From IMG/VR virus record IMGVR_UViG_3300045988_182866: a stretch of DNA of 64,000 nucleotides. One strand, 5' to 3'. Position numbers and translations under genes: made by a program. A model generated the notes under the pieces. The model searched no databases. It saw only the letters and a list, made by a program, of their open reading frames with translations, and was not told where the DNA came from. The stretch is from a virus. Positions 406-64,000 of the stretch are shown here, one piece after another; the stretch's first letter is position 1; every line of letters begins with the position of its first letter.

Positions 406-1008
406 TTAGTCAATGATCATAAATTCATTACTACACAATTCTTCGACTTCTTTAGTAACCCACTCAATGAAAAAACCTCGCTTGAAATGGTCATCCTCAC
501 TAACAACATCAATCATTTTTCGTCTGTTAAGAATATCCCTTTCAATACTCTTAGGGCAGTAATCTCCTGAAAAAGGATTTCGAAGCCGACTCTTCAAAGC
601 TTGATTATCATAGTTCCAGAAATAAATTTTATTAGGGAAAAGTATTTTTCCTTTATTATGATATTCAAGAGCCAGCGTATATTTGTTTACAAACTCGGCC
701 GGGGTCATACCGAAAGAAGCTTCAGTTGAAAATCTCTCAATCATTAAAGAATGATTTGGATCTGTTCCATTTCTATAGACATCTTGAGCCAAGGACTTAA
801 TAGAAAATGAATATTGCTCTGCATTCTTTTTTAAGAAGCTGAATATATCATCATTATCCTTGATACTAGACTTTAACGCAAAGATTCTCTTGTATTTTTT
901 AGAATAAAAGAAAAGCTTAAGGAAAAAGGGACTTACAGAAAATATAGCGTCAGGATGTTCCTGAAGAAATATTTCAAGAGTTGAGGTATTCAAATTTATC
1001 AGAAGCAT
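406..1008 (-). CDS. hypothetical protein
   Basis: 200-aa ORF, no recognisable motif. Confidence 0.45.
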   Translation of the reverse strand: MLLINLNTSTLEIFLQEHPDAIFSVSPFFLKLFFYSKKYKRIFALKSSIKDNDDIFSFLKKNAEQYSFSIKSLAQDVYRNGTDPNHSLMIERFSTEASFGMTPAEFVNKYTLALEYHNKGKILFPNKIYFWNYDNQALKSRLRNPFSGDYCPKSIERDILNRRKMIDVVSEDDHFKRGFFIEWVTKEVEELCSNEFMIID

Positions 1009-1063
1009 AACTTCATTTTATAATTCTCCTTATTTGAGGATGGTGTCTGATATAAAAATAATA

Positions 1064-1097
1064 AAAGCTCGGATGGACTTTTATCCATCCGAGCTTT
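1064..1097 (-). terminator. rho-independent terminator
   Basis: GC hairpin gctcggatgg/ccatccgagc followed on minus strand by TTTTATTATTTTTAT, just 3' of ORF 1123..1458. Confidence 0.6.
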
Positions 1098-1122
1098 ATA
1101 ATACTCAAGTTAAATCAATTGC

Positions 1123-1458
1123 TTACTGAATACTCTGAGTCGGAACTTCAAAGTTCAGCATTTCAGCCGCAGGTTCGAAACTCGTAATTTCGTTAAGAAT
1201 ACTTTCAGGAAGAGAATCCTTCAGCGGTTCAACAACCATCTGATGCCAGGGTTCAACAATCTTTTCGTTCCAAGTAGCCTGGGCCTCTTCAGGAGTAGTT
1301 TTGCCAAGCAGAACCTTATTAGTCAGATTCGTCTTAGTCGTGCAAGCCTTCGACTGAACACCAGCATAATCACGAGCAGAAACACTCGCACGAATGCGAA
1401 TAACGGTTCCATTGGTCAGATGAGCGTTCAGGTCTACGTTCTTAATGTCTTTAGCCAT
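1123..1458 (-). CDS. hypothetical protein (GC-richer codon usage, own terminator; likely highly expressed)
   Basis: 111-aa ORF; strong terminator immediately downstream. Confidence 0.5.
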   Translation of the reverse strand: MAKDIKNVDLNAHLTNGTVIRIRASVSARDYAGVQSKACTTKTNLTNKVLLGKTTPEEAQATWNEKIVEPWHQMVVEPLKDSLPESILNEITSFEPAAEMLNFEVPTQSIQ

Positions 1459-1560
1459 TGTATGTTTTTCTTTCTATTTTAGTTTGTTTTGTTTTTTAAG
1501 TTAACCACTTAATGTGATTTACAGTTTTATAATAAGATTTAACTTATTGTTCAAAGGTGT

Positions 1561-1800
1561 TCAAGATTTCTTCTTGATATTTCTAGGATCACAAAATAGC
1601 ATCGGAATAAAGAACACTATATCAAGGCAAATTGCAAGAGGAGTATAAATCAATATTCCGAAGGATATAATCATTAGAGCAAGTTTGTCTCTAAATCTTG
1701 GAGCATCTCTCATATACTTGAAGCAAGTATAGATTAGCTCAAACTCAAATCTCAGAAACGGTAGTACCATCAGATGGACTGAATACAAAAGCCCGTACAT
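1561..1800 (-). CDS. small membrane protein
   Basis: 79 aa, hydrophobic segments. Confidence 0.35.
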   Translation of the reverse strand: MYGLLYSVHLMVLPFLRFEFELIYTCFKYMRDAPRFRDKLALMIISFGILIYTPLAICLDIVFFIPMLFCDPRNIKKKS

Positions 1801-2218
1801 ATTGAGCCAATGGAAGCCTCTGTCTCCATTCGGCTTTGAGCTGAGTAACTCTATTCCGATAATTCCGTTCAGATTTTGGACAAGAATTTATAATATCTTC
1901 GGAAATAATTTTACAATGCTCGATATAAACCATATTTTCCTGATAAGAAAACTCCCGCTTAGGCTGAAGGCCGTTCAAAGTTTTAATAAAAGAATCCCGC
2001 ATTTCAGATAAAGCTTGAATCTCTTCTTCATCTACGAGTTCCTGAAGCAAAGTTCGTTCAAGAGTATTTTTAATAATTTCAAGGCTTTCCCGAACTAACT
2101 CCAAATATCCATCATATCCGATCTTTTCGAATACAATATTTTTTAGGCTTCGGTCGGAAGCAGAGAAATATTCTTTCAGAAAATATCTTTGCATATATTT
2201 GTTTATCTGTAGTTTCAA
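1745..2218 (-). CDS. hypothetical protein
   Basis: 157-aa ORF. Confidence 0.45.
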   Translation of the reverse strand: MKLQINKYMQRYFLKEYFSASDRSLKNIVFEKIGYDGYLELVRESLEIIKNTLERTLLQELVDEEEIQALSEMRDSFIKTLNGLQPKREFSYQENMVYIEHCKIISEDIINSCPKSERNYRNRVTQLKAEWRQRLPLAQYVRAFVFSPSDGTTVSEI

Positions 2219-2261
2219 TCCACATACTTTGAGCTAATCAAAGTATGAAAAAGTTTAATGT

Positions 2262-2729
2262 TTACCTATAAAATGCCGCCGTTACAGTCAACCCGTTGTT
2301 GAAGACAACCTTACCGCAAATAATATAACCGTCCTCCTCTTCTTCATCAAATTTGGTAAAGCTCTTAATATAGCCATTAGCTTTGATAAAATCAAGAAAA
2401 TCTTTCTCTCCAAGGAACTTATAATTGTTCGGAGAAAATATAGTTATTTCACCGGTAGACTTATTTTCAATCGAGATAAGATTTGCCCGACTGCAATAAT
2501 AAAGGAACATGTTAGCATTCCGGTCAAAATTAACAATCTGTGCACCCTTCAAAGTAGTAAACCTAAAGTTAGAATGGCCGAGTTGTCCTTCATACATTCT
2601 AGCGAAGCTGTTAATATTTTCTTCAGTAAAAGGATTTTCCCGAATAACTTTAGAATGGAATACCCATTTACCTGCTTTGGTTCGTCTTTCTACGATAATA
2701 GTCCGGAATTTCTGGTTTGTCTCTAGCAT
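2262..2729 (-). CDS. hypothetical protein
   Basis: 155-aa ORF. Confidence 0.5.
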   Translation of the reverse strand: MLETNQKFRTIIVERRTKAGKWVFHSKVIRENPFTEENINSFARMYEGQLGHSNFRFTTLKGAQIVNFDRNANMFLYYCSRANLISIENKSTGEITIFSPNNYKFLGEKDFLDFIKANGYIKSFTKFDEEEEDGYIICGKVVFNNGLTVTAAFYR

Positions 2730-2738
2730 ATTTTGATT

Positions 2739-2942
2739 TTAGTGTATATTGTTAAGATTTTTATAAACTGCTTTAGTATATTCGTCCTTTTTAGAAACCC
2801 AACGTTTAGGCATGCTGATACGTTCTTTCTTAGAGAGGAATGACCAATGAGTTGCTTTACCGCCTTTTGTCTTTCCCTCTTTACTCCAAATGCCTGAAGT
2901 TTTCATACTTCTAGGAGTTGGCTCAATACTGTCATTCAACAT
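2739..2942 (-). CDS. small basic protein
   Basis: 67-aa ORF, K/R-rich. Confidence 0.35.
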   Translation of the reverse strand: MLNDSIEPTPRSMKTSGIWSKEGKTKGGKATHWSFLSKKERISMPKRWVSKKDEYTKAVYKNLNNIH

Positions 2943-3371
2943 AATTTTATGTTATTTGCGTTCTATTTTCTCAAAGGTGTTTTAACAATTGGAAATAAGT
3001 AAAAATTATTCCAATTATGAGTGCGATTATAAAAGCAATTATATTTGCTTGCCATTGTTTCATTTAACCAAAGAATACTTGATAAAGTTGATAAATGCCT
3101 GCAATAACAAGTATAACAATTGCTACGCCCAAAGCTTGCATAAAACCTTCAAATGATTCAGGATCAGCCATGATATTTGATATAGTTGATTGTTAAAAGA
3201 ATGATAAAACCAATTCCAAAACCAGTAAGCCAGGATTTTATCATATTAAAACTTATCTGGATTTTCTGAAATCCATTTAGATCCCCATGCCATTAGGCAA
3301 AGAACCAAAAGAATTGCAGGACCAACCAAAACCGGTTTAAGGGCCTCATATAGTTCAATAAGAAAAGTCAT

Positions 3372-3668
3372 TTAATAATATCCTATCCAGTTGTTAAGTG
3401 TTGCCAGTTCTTCTAATTTTGTTTCTGCTTCTTGAAGAGTCTTAAAAATAAAATCTTCTTTATTCAATCCTTGTTGAATATCCCAAATATATCCTCGTTT
3501 GATAAATTTGGAATGAAAATCTTCTCCTCCGATAATTACTCGGATAGAATAATCTTCTTTTTCAAAATGGACCACTTGAAGATAAATCCTGAAACCGTCG
3601 CCGTCCCCAATATGATATGTCTTTGACGGCTCCAGGACAAATTCCGTAATACTACTTTCGTTTTCCAC
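3372..3668 (-). CDS. hypothetical protein
   Basis: 98-aa ORF. Confidence 0.4.
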   Translation of the reverse strand: MENESSITEFVLEPSKTYHIGDGDGFRIYLQVVHFEKEDYSIRVIIGGEDFHSKFIKRGYIWDIQQGLNKEDFIFKTLQEAETKLEELATLNNWIGYY

Positions 3669-4044
3669 GCTGACCTTTCTTATATTCCCAATTCTTCATC
3701 TTAAGAAGATAATAAACCCTCCCAACTGCAATTCCAGAAAGAACGGACATTTGCTTAACTGTACGATCCGGAGAATAAAACTTTCGAAGTTGCTCAATCT
3801 CAGGTTCCCAATCTCGAGTTTGCCGCCCTGAAGTAGCCCGGCCGCCAATTTTACCAACATAAACAATATCGCAAAGATATTTGCCAAGTTTGAAAAGATT
3901 GTTAACAGGCTTAATATTGTCCTCAATATTCAAATCCGAAAAATAATCTTCCTTTGCTTTATTGAGAACATCTTCAATTGTTCCAAATTTTACATTAACA
4001 ATCTGAAAGTTTAATGTTTCAGTGTTGATAATTTTTATTTGCAT
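3652..4044 (-). CDS. hypothetical protein, possible C-terminal HTH
   Basis: 130-aa ORF; C-terminal basic helix-turn-helix-like segment. Confidence 0.45.
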   Translation of the reverse strand: MQIKIINTETLNFQIVNVKFGTIEDVLNKAKEDYFSDLNIEDNIKPVNNLFKLGKYLCDIVYVGKIGGRATSGRQTRDWEPEIEQLRKFYSPDRTVKQMSVLSGIAVGRVYYLLKMKNWEYKKGQRGKRK

Positions 4045-4091
4045 GATACTTTTATTATATTTCTTACCTTATTATTTGAAGGTGTTAGAAC

Positions 4092-4367
4092 TTAAACCAA
4101 ATAAAAGAAATGTTTCTTTTTGAAATTATACAAAATATACCTTTTTTGATCTTCATCATATTCAACTTCAGACTCTTCTTCTCGATAAAACATCTTAATA
4201 TCATTGGACAAGCGAGTAACTAAGATGCCATATTCCGGCCGTTCTTTAATTTCAATCGAAACTTCAACGGGCTTAAGAAAATCAAAATTAAGAGGAATAC
4301 CACAATATTTTACTTTTTTCCCTTTTAGCTTTTTAGCAAACTTTCTAAAGTCTATTTTATTTTTCAT
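4092..4367 (-). CDS. hypothetical protein
   Basis: 91-aa ORF. Confidence 0.4.
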   Translation of the reverse strand: MKNKIDFRKFAKKLKGKKVKYCGIPLNFDFLKPVEVSIEIKERPEYGILVTRLSNDIKMFYREEESEVEYDEDQKRYILYNFKKKHFFYLV

Positions 4368-4451
4368 TTAATTTATTTTTAAGATTGTTTTATTCTTTTA
4401 TAATATAATAATCTTATTATAAAAATAATTCCTTAAAACGATTTTTAGAAT

Positions 4452-4970: not shown

Positions 4971-6371
4971 TTAAACCCAGTTTCTTCGAACTATTTCACG
5001 AATTTCAGAAAAAGTTTGTTCTCGAATCAGTTTGCCATTCTCAAAAACTAGATCTAAAATATCTCTTTCAGAAGTTTCTTGAATAGTTTGATATTTATTT
5101 ATTTCGTTAAGAATCAAAGACAAACGCCCCTTCTTAGAAGCTTTTGACATATCCAATGGACGTTTTTGAACATCATGCCATTTATCGTCATACTTCTGAG
5201 CGGAACATTTAAAAGCAAACCGGCAAGTATCTCGGTTAATTTTTTGAAGAAGTCCTCCACCCATGCCAAAAGCCCAGTTTTCCGATGACCAGCCGTTTTT
5301 TGCAGATTCTTCAAGAATACGATCCATATCGCTAATATTGATACCATCACCCCAAAGAGCCCGAACTTGATCCGGAAGAACTTTGAATCCTTTATTGTTT
5401 ACAGTATATCCGAAATATTGGCCGAGAAGTTCCAGTACCTGTTGAGATACTTTAATAATATCACCAGAATCAGGTCTGAATACAATTCGTCCATTTCGAT
5501 TGAGAATCAAATCCTTAAATTTTGTTCCGCAAACTTCAATGAATCGTTCATAATTGTATGAATCGATTACCATTGCCATAATTCCGTCAGGATTCTTATT
5601 CAGCAGTTCTTCAACTACGCCAAACTCTCCTTCTTCTCCTCGAGAAGTCATGATGGAATGTTCAGTAGCCCTGATGCTATATCCGAACATTTTATCAATA
5701 TTCTCATTATAGTATCGGGAAGGAACAAGCAAAGCTGGAACGGTATCAGTCCCATTAAAATTCAGCAAATGGGCAGAGCCGCCCAGCATAGAAGCTTCAA
5801 AATTTTCAGTTCCCCGGCATCCAAAATCGTGAAGTTGAAAATTGAGAATATTATTAAAATCTTCTCCTTCTTTATCTGAGGTAGTTGTCAGCCAATTAGT
5901 TAACATTAACTTCCCATAATAAGAAGTTGTGGCGACTGTAATCGGGTACCATATATGAGTAAGAATAGTTTCGGCAAAATTAGTTAAGAAAGGAACTTTA
6001 TCGTCAGTATTTTCAATAGTCATTAGAACATTGGAAATATCAATTAGGGAACCTTCTTTAACGGCCTTAATCCTAAGAGGAAGATGACCATTATATTTTT
6101 TAAGAATATATTCCCAACCTTCTTTATTAAAGATGCCAGGACCAATATGCCGAGTAATAAGATAATCAGCTTCATTAATCAGTTCCTGAGTAATAACAGG
6201 TCCTACAAAATATTTCTTAAGGATTGCCTGAAGGCCATAAAAAACAGTCTTAGGAAACTTAGAACCTTTACGGGCTTCGAAATAAGAATATACTCCTTGA
6301 GTATTGTTAGGTAACATCTTGTCATGAGTATATTTGTAAGAATCAGCAGAAAATAAAATATTATCGGTCAT
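4971..6371 (-). CDS. nadV: nicotinamide phosphoribosyltransferase (NAMPT/NadV)
   Basis: 466 aa; matches NAMPT family by length and conserved blocks (KKYNGHLPLRIKAVKEGS, RGTENFEASMLGG, GMGGGLLQ). Confidence 0.9.
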   Translation of the reverse strand: MTDNILFSADSYKYTHDKMLPNNTQGVYSYFEARKGSKFPKTVFYGLQAILKKYFVGPVITQELINEADYLITRHIGPGIFNKEGWEYILKKYNGHLPLRIKAVKEGSLIDISNVLMTIENTDDKVPFLTNFAETILTHIWYPITVATTSYYGKLMLTNWLTTTSDKEGEDFNNILNFQLHDFGCRGTENFEASMLGGSAHLLNFNGTDTVPALLVPSRYYNENIDKMFGYSIRATEHSIMTSRGEEGEFGVVEELLNKNPDGIMAMVIDSYNYERFIEVCGTKFKDLILNRNGRIVFRPDSGDIIKVSQQVLELLGQYFGYTVNNKGFKVLPDQVRALWGDGINISDMDRILEESAKNGWSSENWAFGMGGGLLQKINRDTCRFAFKCSAQKYDDKWHDVQKRPLDMSKASKKGRLSLILNEINKYQTIQETSERDILDLVFENGKLIREQTFSEIREIVRRNWV

Positions 6372-30473: not shown

Positions 30474-30833
30474 TTATATTTGTAAGTGCTTAGAAATTAA
30501 ATCTTTAATTTGTTGATTGTTCTTTTTCCAATCATTTTCCCAAACTTCAATTAATTTGATACCATTTTCTTTACAAGCTTTTCGTTTATTCTTGTGATAA
30601 CCTGGTTCTTTCTCTTCGTGAAATTGATGCCAATATTCACCATTATATTCAAAAGCTAATTTAAGTTCGGGAAGATAAATGTCCAATTCTTTTCCGCCAA
30701 TAAATTTTCGAGTATTTTCTAAAATCTTGCCAGAATAAAGAGATTTAATATATTGGCAAAGCTCTTTTTCACCCCTGGAATAAGTTTGCGGGAAACATGC
30801 TCTGTCTTTAGCTGAGTATATGAAAGCAAACAA
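30474..30833 (-). CDS. DUF559/Vsr-like PD-(D/E)xK endonuclease domain protein (stand-alone copy)
   Basis: ELDIYLPELKLAFEYNGEYWH; about 80% nt identity to 3' ends of 35830..36735 and 38412..39503. Confidence 0.65.
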   Translation of the reverse strand: MFAFIYSAKDRACFPQTYSRGEKELCQYIKSLYSGKILENTRKFIGGKELDIYLPELKLAFEYNGEYWHQFHEEKEPGYHKNKRKACKENGIKLIEVWENDWKKNNQQIKDLISKHLQI

Positions 30834-30896: not shown

Positions 30897-32069
30897 ATGA
30901 TTCATAAAGCATATAAATTCAGATTACTCCCAACAAAGGAGCAAGAGGAATTTTTATGTAAATCATTTGGTGCATCTCGATGGGTTTATAATTATTTCTT
31001 AAATTATAGAGATTCTAAATTCAAAAATGAAGGAGTAAGAGTTAATTATTTTGAGATGAAGAGAATGTTTCCTGAACTTAAAAAACAGGAAGAAACATCT
31101 TGGCTTAAAGAAATAAACTCTCAATCCCTTCAATGTGCTTTAATGAATCTTGATAGTGCTTATATTAAATTCTTTAAAGGATTATCAAAGTTTCCAAAAT
31201 TTAAGAAAAAGAATGGTAAACAGTCATTTGAAATTCCGCAACATTGGAAATTAAATGATAATACTGTTAAAATTCCTAAATTAAAAACTCCATTAAAATT
31301 TATTAAGCATCGTGAAATAAAAGGAGAAATTTGTTCTATCACTATTTCTAAATCGAAAACAAATAAGTATTTTATTTCTTTTTGTTGTGAATTAGAAAAC
31401 TATCATCAGCAAACTAAAGGTTCTGAAGTTGGTATCGATTTGGGTATAAAAGATTTATTGATATGTTCAGATGGAACGAAATATACAAATCATAAATTTT
31501 ATAAGAAAAATTTAAAGAAGTTAAAAAATCTTCAAAAACATTTAAGTCGAAAGAAGAAAGGTTCAAAGCGAAGAGAAAAAGCTCGTTTAAAAGTCGCAAA
31601 AGCTTATGAGAAGATAACCAATTCTCGTGAAGATTTATATCACAAGGTTTCTAACGATTTAATGAACAAATATTCTTTAATTTGTCTTGAATCTTTAAAT
31701 GTTAAGGGAATGATGAGAAATCATAAATTAGCATGTTCTATTCAAGATGCCGCTTGGTATAGTCTTATTTCAAAAATAGAATATAAAGCTAAATGGAAAG
31801 GTATTAATGTTGTTAAAATAGACCAGTTTTATCCGAGTAGTAAAACTTGTTCGGTATGTAATTGGAAGAAAAATGATTTAACGCTTAAAGACCGTGAATG
31901 GGTTTGCCCCAAATGCGGTACTCACCACGACAGAGACTTAAATGCAGCTAAAAACATTCTTGCTTGGGGTAAACAGTTGATTACTCTATCGGATGGAACG
32001 TCCGATTACGAGCATGGAGATGAAGTAAAACTAAAATCGTCTAAAAAGACGAGAACGTATCATCTATGA
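30897..32069 (+). CDS. tnpB: TnpB (IS200/IS605 OrfB)
   Basis: N-terminal YKFRLLPTKEQEEFL; C-terminal CSVCNWKKN..CPKCGTHHDRDLNAAKNI zinc finger plus RuvC-III. Confidence 0.85.
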   Translation: MIHKAYKFRLLPTKEQEEFLCKSFGASRWVYNYFLNYRDSKFKNEGVRVNYFEMKRMFPELKKQEETSWLKEINSQSLQCALMNLDSAYIKFFKGLSKFPKFKKKNGKQSFEIPQHWKLNDNTVKIPKLKTPLKFIKHREIKGEICSITISKSKTNKYFISFCCELENYHQQTKGSEVGIDLGIKDLLICSDGTKYTNHKFYKKNLKKLKNLQKHLSRKKKGSKRREKARLKVAKAYEKITNSREDLYHKVSNDLMNKYSLICLESLNVKGMMRNHKLACSIQDAAWYSLISKIEYKAKWKGINVVKIDQFYPSSKTCSVCNWKKNDLTLKDREWVCPKCGTHHDRDLNAAKNILAWGKQLITLSDGTSDYEHGDEVKLKSSKKTRTYHL

Positions 32070-35829: not shown

Positions 35830-36735
35830 CTATAATTTTTCTCTAATTTTCTGGAGGTGTTCAGATATTTCTTTTTTAATGGTTTCTGCATTAGTTTTCC
35901 ATTGGCTGTCCCAAACTTCAATTAAAGTGATTCTGGCATCTTTACAAAGTTGCCTTTTATTTTCATGATAGCCAGGTTCTTTTTCTTCATGTATTTTATG
36001 CCAGTATTCGCCATTATATTCAAGGGCAAGTTTTAATTCAGGAAGATAAATATCCAATTCTTTTCGACCAATAAATTTTCTTGTATTTTCGAGAATTTCT
36101 CCAGGATAAATTGATTTGATAAAATCGCATAACTCCTTTTCACCCTTAGATTTCTTTTCATGAAGGGCACATTTTAAACATCCCCGCCCAGTTAAGTGAT
36201 TATACGCCATTTGAGCAAATTTACCATGGACAGGACAAATAATAATCACATTTGTTTCTGCATTAATATAAATTGTTTTCGAATAATCGAATTTATGTCC
36301 ATGCACTTTTTGAGCACGGTTAATAAATTCTTTTGTGGTTAAACGCTCCAATCCTACGCAACTTTTGCATCCATGCCCCCTTAAATGATTGATGGGATAT
36401 TGCTGAAAAGGTCCATGAACAGGGCAAATAATAGGTACTTTTGCATGATTATTTTTATAGTTTACTTTAGAATAATCATATTTGTTCCCATGAACCTCTC
36501 TTGCTTTCTTTATAAACTTCTCAGTCGTTAAAGATTTTGCATCAACTGCACATTTAAAACATCCCTGACCTCGTAAATGGGCTCCGGCTCTTTGTTGGAA
36601 AGGTCCATGAACCGGGCAAATAACAGTTATAGAACTATAAGCATTTTTATAATTTACTTCAGAATAATCAAAAAAGTCTCCATGTATTTTTCTAGCCCTG
36701 TCAATAAAAATTTCAGTGGTTATTCTGTTGGGCAT
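35830..36735 (-). CDS. putative homing endonuclease: 3x zinc-binding KYDYS repeat modules plus C-terminal DUF559/Vsr-like nuclease
   Basis: repeats F.KA..VHG.KYDYS.V.Y....K..IICP.HG.F.Q....HL.G.GC..C; C-terminal ELDIYLPELKLALEYNGEYWH. Confidence 0.65.
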   Translation of the reverse strand: MPNRITTEIFIDRARKIHGDFFDYSEVNYKNAYSSITVICPVHGPFQQRAGAHLRGQGCFKCAVDAKSLTTEKFIKKAREVHGNKYDYSKVNYKNNHAKVPIICPVHGPFQQYPINHLRGHGCKSCVGLERLTTKEFINRAQKVHGHKFDYSKTIYINAETNVIIICPVHGKFAQMAYNHLTGRGCLKCALHEKKSKGEKELCDFIKSIYPGEILENTRKFIGRKELDIYLPELKLALEYNGEYWHKIHEEKEPGYHENKRQLCKDARITLIEVWDSQWKTNAETIKKEISEHLQKIREKL

Positions 36736-56660: not shown

Positions 56661-58190
56661 ATGAACCTTTCTTTATTGACAGTATTATGTCATGGCAAAA
56701 ATAATAGCCAACTTAAAGAATTATTAAAAAATAATAAAATATTAAATTTTATTAATACTTTTATTAAAGATAAACCTTATTATGAAACACCCTTTAGATT
56801 TTTAAAATTGTTGAGTAAAAATGCAACATTACCTGCCTGTATTATATGTGGAAATATTATTTCTTATAGTATTTGGAATAGACGTAATAATGCTAAATTT
56901 TGTTCTAAAACTTGCAAATATTCTAAAGAAGGTAAAGAAAATACTAGAAAAAATATTGAAAAAACATTAATTGAAAAATATAAGGTTAAAAATATTTTAC
57001 AACATAAAAAGTTTAAAGAAAAACAAGAATTAACTTGTTTAGCAAAATACGGAACTAAATTTTATTCAAAAACTTCAGAATGTAAAGAAAAAGTTAAGAA
57101 GACGTCATTAGAAAAATTTGGTACAAATAATGTGATGTTCAATAAAAAGGTTTTAAAAAATATAAAAAATAATAATTTATTAAAATTTGGGGTTGAATGG
57201 CCTTTATCAGATAAAACTATTCATAAAAAAACTATGAATAGTCTTGTTAAAAAACATTTAGAAAAGCTTAAAAAGTTTAATTTAACTTTGTTAGATGAAT
57301 ATCAATCCACAAAAGAATACTATAATTTTAAATGTGCTACATGTGGTAATACATTTAAAGATCATTTAAAAAATGGTAGAATTCCTATATGCAAACATTG
57401 CTTTCCTTCTAATACTTCTATTGGGGAAAAAGAATTATCAAACTTTATTAAACAATTTTCTTCTAATATTAGCTTAAATGATAGAACATTAATAAATCCT
57501 TTAGAATTAGATATTGTTATTCCAGAAAAACATTTAGCAATAGAATTTAATGGGCTATATTGGCATTCTGAAGAACATGGTAAAAATGAAAATTATCATA
57601 TTAATAAATCATTATTATGTAAATCTAAAAACTTTAATTTAATTCATATATTTGAAGATGAATGGCTTTTTCAAAAAAATATAATAAAAGGTATTATAAA
57701 AGATTATTTTAATAGCAAAAAAATAAAAACAAATTTTATTACATTTAAAAAAATCGATAATAAATTAGCTAAAAAATTTAATGAAAAATATAATATTCTT
57801 GGACATATTACTACAAAAAATAATTTTGGACTTTTTTATAAAAATAGATTAATACATGTATTATCTGTTGGAAAACCAAGATTTAATAAAATTTACAAAT
57901 ATGAAATTTATCGATTATCCTCAACATTTAATTTTAAAATTGAAAATTATTTTAAAGTTTTAATTGATAATTTACCTTTATCAATTAAAGAATCATTAAT
58001 ATTTTATGAAAATAAACGTTTTCCTATTATTAATAAAACATTATTAGATAATTTGATATTTTTATCAAATTCTAAGCCAAGCTATTTTTTTGTCAAAAAT
58101 AAAAATAGATATTCAAAATATAATAAAATAAATAGATTTGATTATAAAATTTGGGATTGCGGATCAACACTTTATCAGGTTAAATATTAA
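56661..58190 (+). CDS. putative homing endonuclease: K/N-rich zinc-ribbon N-terminus plus C-terminal DUF559/Vsr-like nuclease
   Basis: CIICGN..C..C and CATCGN..CKHC; C-terminal LELDIVIPEKHLAIEFNGLYWH. Confidence 0.6.
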   Translation: MNLSLLTVLCHGKNNSQLKELLKNNKILNFINTFIKDKPYYETPFRFLKLLSKNATLPACIICGNIISYSIWNRRNNAKFCSKTCKYSKEGKENTRKNIEKTLIEKYKVKNILQHKKFKEKQELTCLAKYGTKFYSKTSECKEKVKKTSLEKFGTNNVMFNKKVLKNIKNNNLLKFGVEWPLSDKTIHKKTMNSLVKKHLEKLKKFNLTLLDEYQSTKEYYNFKCATCGNTFKDHLKNGRIPICKHCFPSNTSIGEKELSNFIKQFSSNISLNDRTLINPLELDIVIPEKHLAIEFNGLYWHSEEHGKNENYHINKSLLCKSKNFNLIHIFEDEWLFQKNIIKGIIKDYFNSKKIKTNFITFKKIDNKLAKKFNEKYNILGHITTKNNFGLFYKNRLIHVLSVGKPRFNKIYKYEIYRLSSTFNFKIENYFKVLIDNLPLSIKESLIFYENKRFPIINKTLLDNLIFLSNSKPSYFFVKNKNRYSKYNKINRFDYKIWDCGSTLYQVKY

Positions 58191-61082: not shown

Positions 61083-63468
61083 TTAGAACCAGTTAGGTAA
61101 ATCTCTGACACCAAATTGGTCAAAGCTATTCGGAAGGGTAATCTGGTTTCGATATTCATCCAAACTAAGAGTTTCTCCAAAATCTAAAAGATTCATTTGC
61201 TTTTTTTGTTTAAAATCATTACTTGATGTAATAGTATTAATTTGGCCTTTACTAAATCCGGCCATTACTCCGATAAATGGAGATTCCATATCCAACTCTT
61301 TATAAAGAGTATTAGCCCAATCAGTCCTGGGATCCATTTCCCATCGTTTTTTAATAACAAGAGGAATATTATTGACGTCTTTTTTATCAACAATAAGATA
61401 ATTGTTAATTACTTTCTTATAAAGAGCAAAAAGACTCCAACATAAAGCCAAAACATGGTCATCATGGAATCCTGGTTGAGCACACCATCGAATATTATTA
61501 CTTTGATTACGAATGCAAGTAAATGTTCTTAATTCTTCAATAGTTTTTTTATCATAAATTTTGACAACTCGACGGTCATGAATATAATATTTCATATTAT
61601 GAACGCCTTCGCTTTTTGTCACTCTATTGGTAATAATACCCGGGAGAACTTTTCGCCCTGGGGTTTGCGGCCCGTATCCTGAACCGAAATTAATAAATCT
61701 CGGATAATTATTTTCATAGAACAGCTTTTCACAAACATGGGCCCCAGGGCCGTTTCGTTCAACTGACATAATAGGAGAATACCACTGTTTTGCAATTTCC
61801 AAGACTTTAGCCGCAAAAGTAGTAATATCCATTGTATTAGTTGAATATCTGGCAGCCTGCTCAATATTCAAGGGGTCAGTAATATCAAAAATTTGAATAA
61901 CTGAATAGTCTTGTCCTACGCCTTCAGAAGTATCAACTCCCATGGTATAGATTTTTTCGGAATCAGGTTTTTTCCAAATATAATAATTTCCATCTTCTAA
62001 TATGTTTAATGGTTCAATTAATTCTTTTGTGAACTTATCAAACATGTTAGGATCAAATGGAGAGCCCGAATTATTAAGAAACCTACATTCATATTCTTGA
62101 GTAAATGTATCATAGCTCATTGTGCTCAATTCAGCATCTTTCCAAGCTTCTGTTCTGCCAGGGAAATCAAACCAAAAAGCTTTCTCTAACGCAAAATCGT
62201 TTCTTCCTTCTTCCGCCTTAGATACCAATTCATGAAATTTATTACCTACGCCCTTAGGAGTAGATGCCACAATAAGCTTTGCATTTTTATTATTATTAAA
62301 ACGAGAAGCAAGAGTAGGAGTAACAGCAGCCCAGAAAGCTTCAGCATCTTTAGGAGGAATAATAGCAAACTCGTCAAGAAGAAGAACATCAATAGCTAAA
62401 CCACGAATAGCATCAGGTGAAGTAGCTGATGTTAAGATACGAGAACCATTCGCTAATGTAAAGAATGTTTTATTAAATTCAAGAACACCGCCCTTAATCC
62501 AGTTTTCCATCATTTGGAAAGCCAGACGAACACGCATAAAAATTTCGGTTGCTGTTGACTGTTTGTTAGCGACAATACATACAGTTTGGTCAGGATGAAA
62601 TACTGCAACCCATGTAGCAACGATAGTCATTAAGGTCGTATTATGGGAAAGAATACCGTTGGCATAATATAAATGATTTGAATCTTTAGCTAATTCAAAA
62701 TCATACATATTTTCCCATTCAGATGTTGCAATTACATCAACAACTTTATCTCCTCCATAATTAGTTGCAATATCTTCGCCAAGTGAATCTTTAGCAAAGA
62801 CTTGCTCATCTTTCATAGTAATTAAAATATGATTATCGGCACATTCGAGAATATTACCTGTCTTGAATTTAATAATATATTTTTGATAAGGGACAGTTTT
62901 ATTAATAGTTTTAATATCTGTCCATTCCTGATTTGAAGAAATTTGCCAATTTGAAGCATCAAGAACTTCTTCAAATTTTCTAAAAATTGTTTTAGATAAA
63001 TCTTTAAATTTTTTAAGCATTTTTAAAGGTAATTTTGTTAATAAACTTTTTAAGCTTATTTTGAATTTTAATTAATTTAAAAAAGATTCCAACGTTAATC
63101 TTAAAGGATAAATTTAAAGGCTTATAACGCACGCAAATTGGCACACTTGGAGAAAGACATTTGCCCCACTGACGAGAGCTTATAAGCAGTGTCTTCTTAT
63201 TGCGCTGAATTGTTTTTAAGATTTTTTTCTGTTTTTCAAAAAGGGTAATATGTTCTTTTTGACCGCTTAACGCAGAAATAATATAAAAGTGATTTTCAGC
63301 AAAATAGATAATATCTTTCTTACACCGGGCAATCTCTTTAATCATCGCCGGAGTATAGGTATAAGTTGTAGTATTCTTAGGTAAATTAGGATTATTAAGA
63401 TAATATTCCTCATTTGCTACTACTTCTTCACCCCTAAAATCAATGATCTTTGTAGCTTTTTTAGGCAT
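61083..63468 (-). CDS. terL: terminase large subunit containing a mini-intein in the Walker A P-loop (frame break inside intein)
   Basis: extein SRQWGK|..|TTLM gives Walker A; Walker B DVLLLDEFAII; intein blocks C-LSPSV.., GNILECADNHILIT, DSNHLYYANGILSHN; ORFs 63013..63468 and 61083..63020 are in different frames. Confidence 0.75.
62640..63159 (-). other. intein (Hint domain) inserted after GK of terminase P-loop
   Basis: starts with Cys after SRQWGK, ends ..NGILSHN immediately before TTLMTIV. Confidence 0.6.
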
Positions 63469-63471
63469 AAC

Positions 63472-63951
63472 TTACAGAATTTTATTGATGAAAGAATCAG
63501 GATGAATCAAAGTATTAGTAACATTCATAATCAATAATTCTTTAAAAGTACTATTGATAATAGTATAAAGATATTCATCCATAGAATGAGCATTATCAAT
63601 AATAATCAAATCATAGGTTTGTCCTCTTAGAGCAAATTCTGCAGAGTTCATTGATTTAAACCTAATAAGAGAATTATTACCGAAATAAAATTCAGATTTA
63701 TTGTAATCACGAACACAACCTATAATTTCATTGTTAAGTTCATTTAATGTATCAAGAGCAATACCCAATTCATTAATCATTAAATCAGCCATTTTCCTAT
63801 TCTCAGTAATGAATAAAATTCTGGAATTTGGATTATAATAAGCCTGGGCAAGAGCAAGGGCGATACAAGTTACTGATTTATTAGACTTTCGATTATCAGA
63901 AGATAATAATAATTTTAAACGTTTTTTATTAGACCGCTTAAGAACTTCCAT
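63472..63951 (-). CDS. hypothetical protein upstream of terL (possible small terminase subunit)
   Basis: 159 aa, position immediately 5' of terL; Walker-B-like DLIIIDNAHSM. Confidence 0.35.
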   Translation of the reverse strand: MEVLKRSNKKRLKLLLSSDNRKSNKSVTCIALALAQAYYNPNSRILFITENRKMADLMINELGIALDTLNELNNEIIGCVRDYNKSEFYFGNNSLIRFKSMNSAEFALRGQTYDLIIIDNAHSMDEYLYTIINSTFKELLIMNVTNTLIHPDSFINKIL

Positions 63952-64000
63952 AGTGAATAAAGAAGATTCAAATGGAATTGCCCGTTCTTTGGAATTAATC

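Follow-up and report, generated by a model that had tools for sequence, protein, structure and literature searches.

How does a phage obtain an active packaging ATPase from a gene that is broken within its nucleotide-binding loop? The question is raised by terL, the gene of the terminase large subunit (TerL), in IMG/VR virus record IMGVR_UViG_3300045988_182866, of which we examined a stretch of 64 kb (hereafter the window) out of a whole genome of at least 126 kb. A first reading of these letters, referred to here as the original prediction, had recognized an intein with a HINT domain that interrupts TerL exactly between the Lys and Thr of the Walker A motif, with the parts of the intein in different reading frames, and had offered a sequencing error, a decaying intein or translational recoding as the cause. 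Our analysis confirmed the insertion point, the intein motifs (all on the minus strand) and the frame difference. The explanation best supported, an intein that is naturally divided between two genes, was missing from that list. Very probably, terL is truly a two-gene ("fractured") locus, and its protein products are rejoined by a class-1 intein that is naturally split at an atypical, N-proximal site.

Two overlapping genes encode TerL and the intein

All features of the locus lie on the minus strand. The first open reading frame (ORF1, 63468..63013, 151 amino acids (aa)) encodes the TerL N-extein and the N-terminal intein half (IntN), while ORF2 (63020..61083, 645 aa), in the +1 frame, encodes the C-terminal intein half (IntC) and the remainder of TerL. 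The N-extein (63160..63468), corresponding to TerL residues 1–103, matched a terminase large subunit family (PHROG phrog_5989, E 7.8e-14), aligned to T4 gp17 from residue 85 onward and ended with SRQWGK (ORF1 residues 98–103, 63177..63160), the first six residues of the Walker A motif. Cys1 of the intein (ORF1 Cys104, 63159..63157) directly follows GK, and after 47 more residues ORF1 is terminated by a TAA stop codon (63015..63013). The resulting 48-residue IntN (63016..63159) comprises Cys1, block A, helix α1 and a tail. Although the frame of ORF2 is open from 63074, the direct overlap of the two genes amounts to 8 nt at the junction ATGCTTAA (63013..63020), where the ATG of IntC (63020..63018) overlaps the IntN stop.

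IntC makes up the first 127 residues of ORF2 (62640..63020) and was assigned by profile and Foldseek matches to inteins. Its translation contains the recognizable motifs CADNH (block B, 62843..62829), MYDFEL (block F, 62708..62691) and GILSHN (block G, 62657..62640), the last of which forms its end. The C-extein (61086..62639) starts with Thr+1 (TTLM...), completes GK/T and includes Walker B (LLLDE, 62384..62370) as well as the nuclease domain, as assigned by Pfam and T4 gp17; the terL stop TAA occupies 61083..61085. With GK/T, the intein occupies the classic insertion point in the P-loop, where it separates Thr from the invariant Lys (Kelley et al. 2016, PMC5050341).

The identity of the interrupted protein was clear. 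Pfam profiles Terminase_6N (8.4e-8) and Terminase_6C (4.5e-5) matched ORF2 past their cut-offs. Joining ORF1 residue 103 to ORF2 residue 128 in silico gave a protein of 621 aa, which matched the solved structures of T4 gp17 (E 7e-52), was colinear with gp17 and showed no gap at the junction, SRQWGKTTLM standing opposite T4 SRQLGKTTVV. A megablast search of the terL region against GenBank phages returned no match, that is, no close cultured relative.

The halves form a conserved intein fold

The original prediction had suggested a search with intein hidden Markov models. Pfam alone was marginal in this respect (Intein_splicing, E 0.0099, below its cut-off), but a family profile built from the fused halves and their relatives matched, far above chance, the solved inteins VidaL (E 1.2e-11), gp41-1 (2.2e-9) and CatC, the consensus of atypical TerL inteins (5.8e-9). 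Because Pfam barely detects this intein, its recognition called for the family profile together with a structure model. AlphaFold (AF2) modelling of IntN fused to IntC from a 12-row alignment yielded a mean predicted local distance difference test score (pLDDT) of 87.5 and a predicted template modelling score (pTM) of 0.79; with the fused sequence as sole input, AF2 gave a poor model (pLDDT 50). The modelled IntN consists of two strands (residues 7–12 and 17–22) and a helix (23–44), with pLDDT values of 87–96 for residues 1–40. The sole disordered segment, residues 45–61, in which confidence is low, contains the split at 48/49, just past the helix. When the fused model was compared with the PDB using Foldseek, the top 50 matches were all inteins or bacterial intein-like (BIL) domains, headed by VidaL (E 3.2e-8, TMt 0.79).

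The residues expected to carry out catalysis are preserved: Cys1, the block B His, MYD of block F, LSHN, and Thr or Ser at position +1 are invariant across the family, as is ADNH of block B. A further conserved element is the N-terminal head of IntC, MxxFKKLSDTxxRKF. Comparison of IntN with its counterpart in the closest relative (L013, 82% nucleotide identity) gave pN 0.15, pS 0.69 and dN/dS of ~0.09, while dN/dS ranged from 0.16 to 0.28 for IntC and from 0.06 to 0.17 for the exteins. These rates indicate that both intein halves are under purifying selection. The invariant catalytic residues, together with pN far below pS in both halves, do not agree with the decaying intein considered in the original prediction.

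Proposed route to ligated TerL

From this architecture the following pathway can be proposed. Gene 1 would yield TerL(1–103)-IntN (48 aa), and gene 2, initiated from its own ATG and probably coupled to termination of ORF1, would yield IntC(127 aa)-TerL(104–621). IntN, a β-hairpin plus helix α1, would dock on the nearly complete HINT domain of IntC. An N–S acyl shift at Cys1 would then give a thioester, to be attacked by Thr+1 in a transesterification; cyclization of the terminal Asn and an O–N shift would release ligated TerL of 621 aa with a complete Walker A motif (SRQWGK-TTLM). Because splicing restores Walker A, the packaging ATPase would be active only after splicing. Both trans-splicing and the start of gene 2, be it independent or coupled, are deduced. 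The leader of the IntC start is A/T-rich and devoid of a Shine–Dalgarno sequence, and in this it resembles 47 of 48 further gene starts that we inspected in the window. A Shine–Dalgarno-like motif was found in only 1 of 48 minus-strand genes, leaders being A/T-rich at a window GC content of 31.7%, which suggests a host with Shine–Dalgarno-independent initiation; Bacteroidota would be an example, as a guess.

Several points weigh against this reading of the locus. The Thr of block B (TxxH) is replaced by Ala (CADNH) throughout the family, including the contiguous inteins of Ackermannviridae described below, and this is non-canonical. CatC has Ser at the same position, and the Ala is probably tolerated, because it is conserved also in contiguous inteins of viable Ackermannviridae. 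With 48 aa (39 in some relatives), IntN is longer than the 15–37 aa of published atypical split inteins (PMC13014065), and its behaviour is a prediction. The dN/dS values given above are rough, as most comparisons approach saturation at synonymous sites. A second intact terL could conceivably lie beyond the window, in the remainder of the genome. Finally, splicing is most likely, but is a prediction from sequence and model.

An alternative that shares the two-gene layout is that the halves associate without splicing, either as a non-covalent two-chain TerL or around a catalytically dead intein. Aeh1 NrdA is reportedly an example of a phage enzyme that was split by a homing endonuclease and is assembled non-covalently. 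Non-covalent assembly of such an enzyme has been reported (PMC3045599), and the Ala in block B of our intein would be in line with a loss of activity. However, a HINT domain of 175 residues left between the Lys and Thr of GK/T would disrupt nucleotide binding. Moreover, Cys1, the block B His, the block F Asp, the penultimate His, the terminal Asn and Thr/Ser at +1 remain invariant over ~35–100% identity, and the Ala-type block B is also found in the contiguous inteins of Ackermannviridae, which must splice. We therefore regard association without splicing as quite improbable.

Extremely unlikely, in our view, is a terL pseudogene or decaying intein in a phage whose DNA is packaged by another terminase. 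This proposal draws on the fact that only part of the genome was seen and that the gene next upstream of terL specifies a P-loop protein with a degenerate motif. Against it stand the purifying selection on exteins and intein halves and the presence of both ORFs, intact, in all relatives. No second terL or second intein was found in the 64-kb window, and the product of the upstream gene, which has no nuclease domain, showed no significant similarity to TerL (BLASTP, E 0.27).

The break is conserved among relatives

In three independent IMG/VR assemblies of the same phage species (L001, L002 and L003), the 2386-nt region carried 3, 7 and 14 substitutions relative to the window, without any indel and with an identical frame structure and junction. 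The 151-aa product of ORF1 represents clusters of 119 and 9 member sequences, and its homologues P0003 and P0005–P0008 (53–85% identity) all stop 39–48 residues past Cys1. In more distant relatives, the initiating Met of the second gene is homologous throughout, but its genomic context takes four forms. The junction of L007 consists of TAA TAA and a 12-nt spacer, with both halves in one frame. In L004 a gene of 371 aa lies between the halves, and its stop overlaps the IntC ATG; its product combines an N-terminal C2H2 zinc finger with a C-terminal DUF559/MTES_1575 nuclease domain carrying EFDGDYWH (DUF559 score 25.4 bits, cut-off 20.6). The halves of L010 are separated by 3.9 kb with six genes (548..4373), among them duplicated and decayed endonuclease parts. 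L013 harbours a truncated, decayed mini-endonuclease after the IntN stop.

The same split is present in a cultured phage, Delftia phage PhiW-14 (NC_013697.1). Its N-terminal half, a 144-aa ORF (L015, 1979–2413) that is unannotated in the record, ends with ...ARQMGK/C...GRG followed by TGA TAA, a GC-rich hairpin, a GGAG Shine–Dalgarno sequence and the IntC ATG at 2462, and both halves share one frame. The annotated TerL of this phage begins at the IntC Met, and we found no mention of the split in the literature.

These junctions bear directly on a programmed +1 ribosomal frameshift within the 62-nt overlap of the open frames, which would produce a contiguous precursor for cis-splicing. Such recoding is used by many phage genes, and ORF2 indeed overlaps ORF1 in the +1 frame. 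Yet inspection by eye, without a formal scan, revealed neither a slippery nor a stall site recognizable for +1 shifting where ORF1 ends (ACC TTT AAA AAT GCT TAA), and ORF2 homologues all start at the same Met. In addition, the frame relation varies from +1 in the window to 0 in L007 and PhiW-14, both with double stops, while L004 and L010 have intervening genes. Since frame relation and spacing differ to this extent, no conserved frameshift could join the halves, and the recoding event of the original prediction is barely plausible. Hardly credible at all is an assembly or sequencing error, by which a 1-nt indel in an A/T homopolymer at ~63013–63075 would break a contiguous mini-intein: although contiguous homologous inteins exist in Ackermannviridae and a single indel could fuse the ORFs, both frames being open across 63074–63013 in a region rich in A and T runs, the four assemblies (window and L001–L003) differ by single-nucleotide polymorphisms but no indel, the 151-aa product recurs in the two clusters mentioned, divergent relatives share the break despite unrelated junctions, spacers or inserted genes, and PhiW-14 exhibits two in-frame stops and a Shine–Dalgarno sequence of its own. 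The expectation that a corrected sequence would yield one continuous ORF fails on the available evidence from this cross-assembly comparison. As neither a sequencing error nor a conserved frameshift can explain the pattern, two separate genes do.

Homing endonucleases and the origin of the split

No homing endonuclease gene separates the overlapping halves in the window, which therefore matches an endonuclease-less variant of the locus. We infer that it represents an endonuclease-free allele of a fractured gene, which may be ancestral or derived and which an endonuclease may have left or may have yet to enter. A possible route is indicated by L004, in which a 15-nt direct repeat, ATTAAAAA(C/T)GTTTTC, occurs at the 3′ end of IntN (4136–4150) and at the 3′ end of the endonuclease gene (5285–5299); such a repeat arose in 16 of 2000 shuffles. 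Recombination between the two copies would leave the stop of IntN overlapping the ATG of IntC, with IntC in the +1 frame, corresponding to the layout of the window. We also considered whether the tail of ORF1 (...KFINKITFKNA) might be a remnant of an endonuclease C-terminus (L004 ...KFIKNVF). This unproven idea was set aside because relatives that carry an endonuclease have similar IntN tails (L010 ...KKLCKNF, L004 ...IKNVFPFV), and the direct repeat of L004 supports the recombination route over a fused remnant.

There is a small chance that the N-proximal split is favoured by selection and is not a neutral scar of endonuclease invasion. This idea draws on the dominance of the split form (~116 of 149 representatives, see below) and on its persistence without an endonuclease in the window, L007 and PhiW-14. 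If true, production of TerL as two inert pieces could time or dose terminase activity. Avs-type STAND NTPases are host sensors that recognize terminase, and the split could hide the TerL ATPase fold from such sensors. The IntC head (MxxFKKLSDTxxRKF) and the IntN tail would then be functional elements for association or regulation.

The inserts themselves deserve a brief description. That of L010 contains two tandem copies of the endonuclease N-terminus (228 and 289 aa), a separate 86-aa ORF with the DUF559 nuclease, and three further unrelated genes including one for a DUF4376 protein; these three look richer in GC by eye. In L013 the drastically shortened endonuclease (1165..1431) is distributed over two frames, one holding part of the zinc finger and the other part of the nuclease, and TGA occurs at two positions where Trp is present in the intact homologue or expected (DGDY*HNED*D). 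Reassignment of this stop codon was considered and rejected: the ORF statistics of the window agree with the standard code, and as the element of L013 is truncated in other respects, decay explains these codons more simply.

Three more Vsr-like/EDxHD matches to the endonucleases of L004 and L010 were detected in the window (tblastn E 3e-6 to 1e-4) and are candidates for free-standing homing endonucleases. One, on the minus strand (30474..30833), is a 119-aa ORF with FEYNGEYWH that adjoins a gene for TnpB; the second (57501..57701, plus strand) lies within ORF 56661..58190, and the third (36054..35869, minus strand) within ORF 35830..36735. The TnpB gene (30897..32069, plus strand) runs opposite to most genes of its region and encodes a 390-aa IS605-type OrfB (Pfam OrfB_IS605 1.3e-28, Cas12f1-like TNB 6.3e-27, HTH_OrfB_IS605 6.3e-17).

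Directly before terL, in the position expected of a small terminase gene, stands a gene for a P-loop-like protein of 197 aa on the minus strand (63472..64000, continuing past the window end; complete in L001, 2950–3549). The protein matched Pfam ResIII (4.5e-6) and TerL_ATPase (0.013) as well as the terminase large subunit family phrog_7579 of PHROG (8.7e-4). Its Walker A motif is degenerate (SSDNRKSNKS; NKRQSGHTT in the L004 homologue), and a Walker-B-like YDLIIIDNA is present. Its candidacy as a TerL paralogue was dismissed on the grounds of the BLASTP result reported above.

Relationship to known inteins

The closest parallels are AceL-TerL and GOS-TerL, which interrupt the same host protein, a T4-type TerL of myoviruses, and are likewise encoded by two genes with a short IntN and a long IntC (37 + 122 aa in GOS-TerL, 48 + 127 in the window, 39 + 127 in relatives). 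The split follows helix α1 in each case, a position termed S2 that has been listed for the AceL and GOS terminases only, with S1 being assigned to VidaL and PolB16 (PMC13014065). Block B is similar, C(A/S)DNH, and the IntC profile matches CatC as noted above. However, the C-extein of natural relatives of AceL and Cat (CEFLGS...) corresponds to QEYE/CRFLNNSG near the ATPase–nuclease boundary, as deduced from natural homologues of CatC, while the intein of the window resides at GK/T; the AceL/GOS/Cat-TerL position is empty in the window (QEYE/CRF, 62099..62079, minus strand). Because of this different insertion site, the intein is not an allele of AceL/GOS-TerL but a distinct lineage at another TerL site. 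The nucleophiles also differ, with Cys1/Thr+1 in the window, Cys1/Cys+1 in AceL and Ser1/Cys+1 in GOS. Sequence identity amounts to ~25%, and the IntC of the window has an extra conserved N-terminal segment. Natural atypical split inteins characterized so far have an IntN of 15–37 aa (PMC13014065). VidaL (PDB 6vgv), the best match in profile and structure, shares the atypical split and short IntN but is divided at S1 after β2, with an IntN of 16 aa (PMC13014065), whereas the split of the window follows helix α1.

The locus also resembles the fractured genes of Dassa et al. 2009 (PMC2677866), in which a split intein interrupts an otherwise conserved enzyme of a phage. A Vsr-like homing endonuclease was present in half of their 26 loci, and free-standing Vsr-like endonucleases with overlapping reading frames lie between the halves of L004, L010 and L013. 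The gp41 locus gp41-7 lacked an endonuclease (PMC2677866), and the window equals this endonuclease-free variant. The same study described a GOS terminase whose split lies at an unusual position and whose IntC has 122 residues. Relative to these fractured genes, the split in the window is N-proximal and the two ORFs overlap directly by the 8 nt ATGCTTAA.

Contiguous mini-inteins in the P-loop of TerL, as found in Vi01-like Ackermannviridae, CP220-like phages and mycobacteriophages (TerL1-a, PMC5050341), share the insertion point between Lys and Thr of Walker A. Those of Ackermannviridae are homologous to the intein of the window (~33% identity over IntC) and have ADxH, MYD and LSHN/T in common with it. 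In contrast to the window, these inteins are part of a single ORF, splice in cis and possess a variable linker where the window group is split. The terL of PhiW-14 agrees with the window in site, intein lineage and split position; its halves are in the same frame and separated instead of overlapping.

A large family of split terL genes

A tblastn search of GenBank phages with IntC retrieved 309 records. Among them, Ackermannviridae (Kuttervirus, Kuja and others) and Campylobacter CP220-like phages carry the homologous intein contiguously at GK/T, and a TerL intein has been reported for phage Magnus (PMC6763660). Contiguous homologues in the TerL of Ackermannviridae demonstrate that an intein of this lineage can function at this site in viable phages. 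The annotated TerL of Vibrio phage vB_VmeM-32 (L019, KU160494.1) and that of Salicola phage SCTP-2 (L017, MF360958.1) likewise begin with the Met of IntC, and directly upstream neither phage has an N-terminal half. Positions 1–1101 of vB_VmeM-32, upstream of IntC-TerL, are free of long ORFs in all frames; the N-terminal half was found neither in this first ~1.1 kb nor at the end of the record. The "terminase large subunit" of SCTP-2 (2531–3424) is an IntC-TerL fragment that continues, in the Walker B region, into a second intein (...SISLLY/CLDGETTVKL...) and then stops. Owing to this second interruption, terL of the 440-kb SCTP-2 seems to exist in at least three pieces.

A phmmer scan of 1.84 billion cluster representatives gave 693 matches at E <= 1e-3, 373 of which reached E <= 1e-10. 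Among the best 149 representatives, 116 had a Met at the split site and the end of IntC within 150 aa, 26 had block G deeper in the protein, as for a contiguous intein, and 7 lacked the motif. The +1 residue of the 116 split representatives was Thr in 77 and Ser in 33 cases. Terminase_6N directly followed IntC in nine out of ten sampled representatives, while the tenth was a ClpB-like AAA protein. Two metagenomic sequences stand out in that P0061 bears an IntC-family head on a ClpB-like AAA_2 protein and P0017 continues after IntC with SMWLCNL..., which looks like a DnaB/gp41-type helicase. As the exteins of both are non-terminase P-loop proteins, the split form with a short IntN is not confined to TerL.

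Conclusions

A split intein in the P-loop of terL represents a known but rarely described kind of element. Its recognition corrects the first reading of this locus and exposes mis-annotation in cultured phages: terL of the window group, PhiW-14, vB_VmeM-32 and SCTP-2 should be annotated as at least two genes joined by trans-splicing, and PhiW-14, at least, is without an N-terminal terL gene in the public record. Natural inteins with an atypical split and short IntN named in 2026 numbered four, namely AceL-TerL, GOS-TerL, VidaL and PolB16 (PMC13014065). For protein engineering, the intein of the window is one member of a large and diverse natural family, with more than 100 clusters at 50% identity, which offers Cys1 with Thr or Ser at +1, a TerL site other than that of AceL and GOS, and contiguous relatives for comparison. 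For the evolution of fractured genes, the family provides a series of states, from the intact endonuclease of L004, via the duplicated or decaying ones of L010 and L013, to the endonuclease-free locus with a spacer in L007 and the endonuclease-free locus with overlapping genes in the window.

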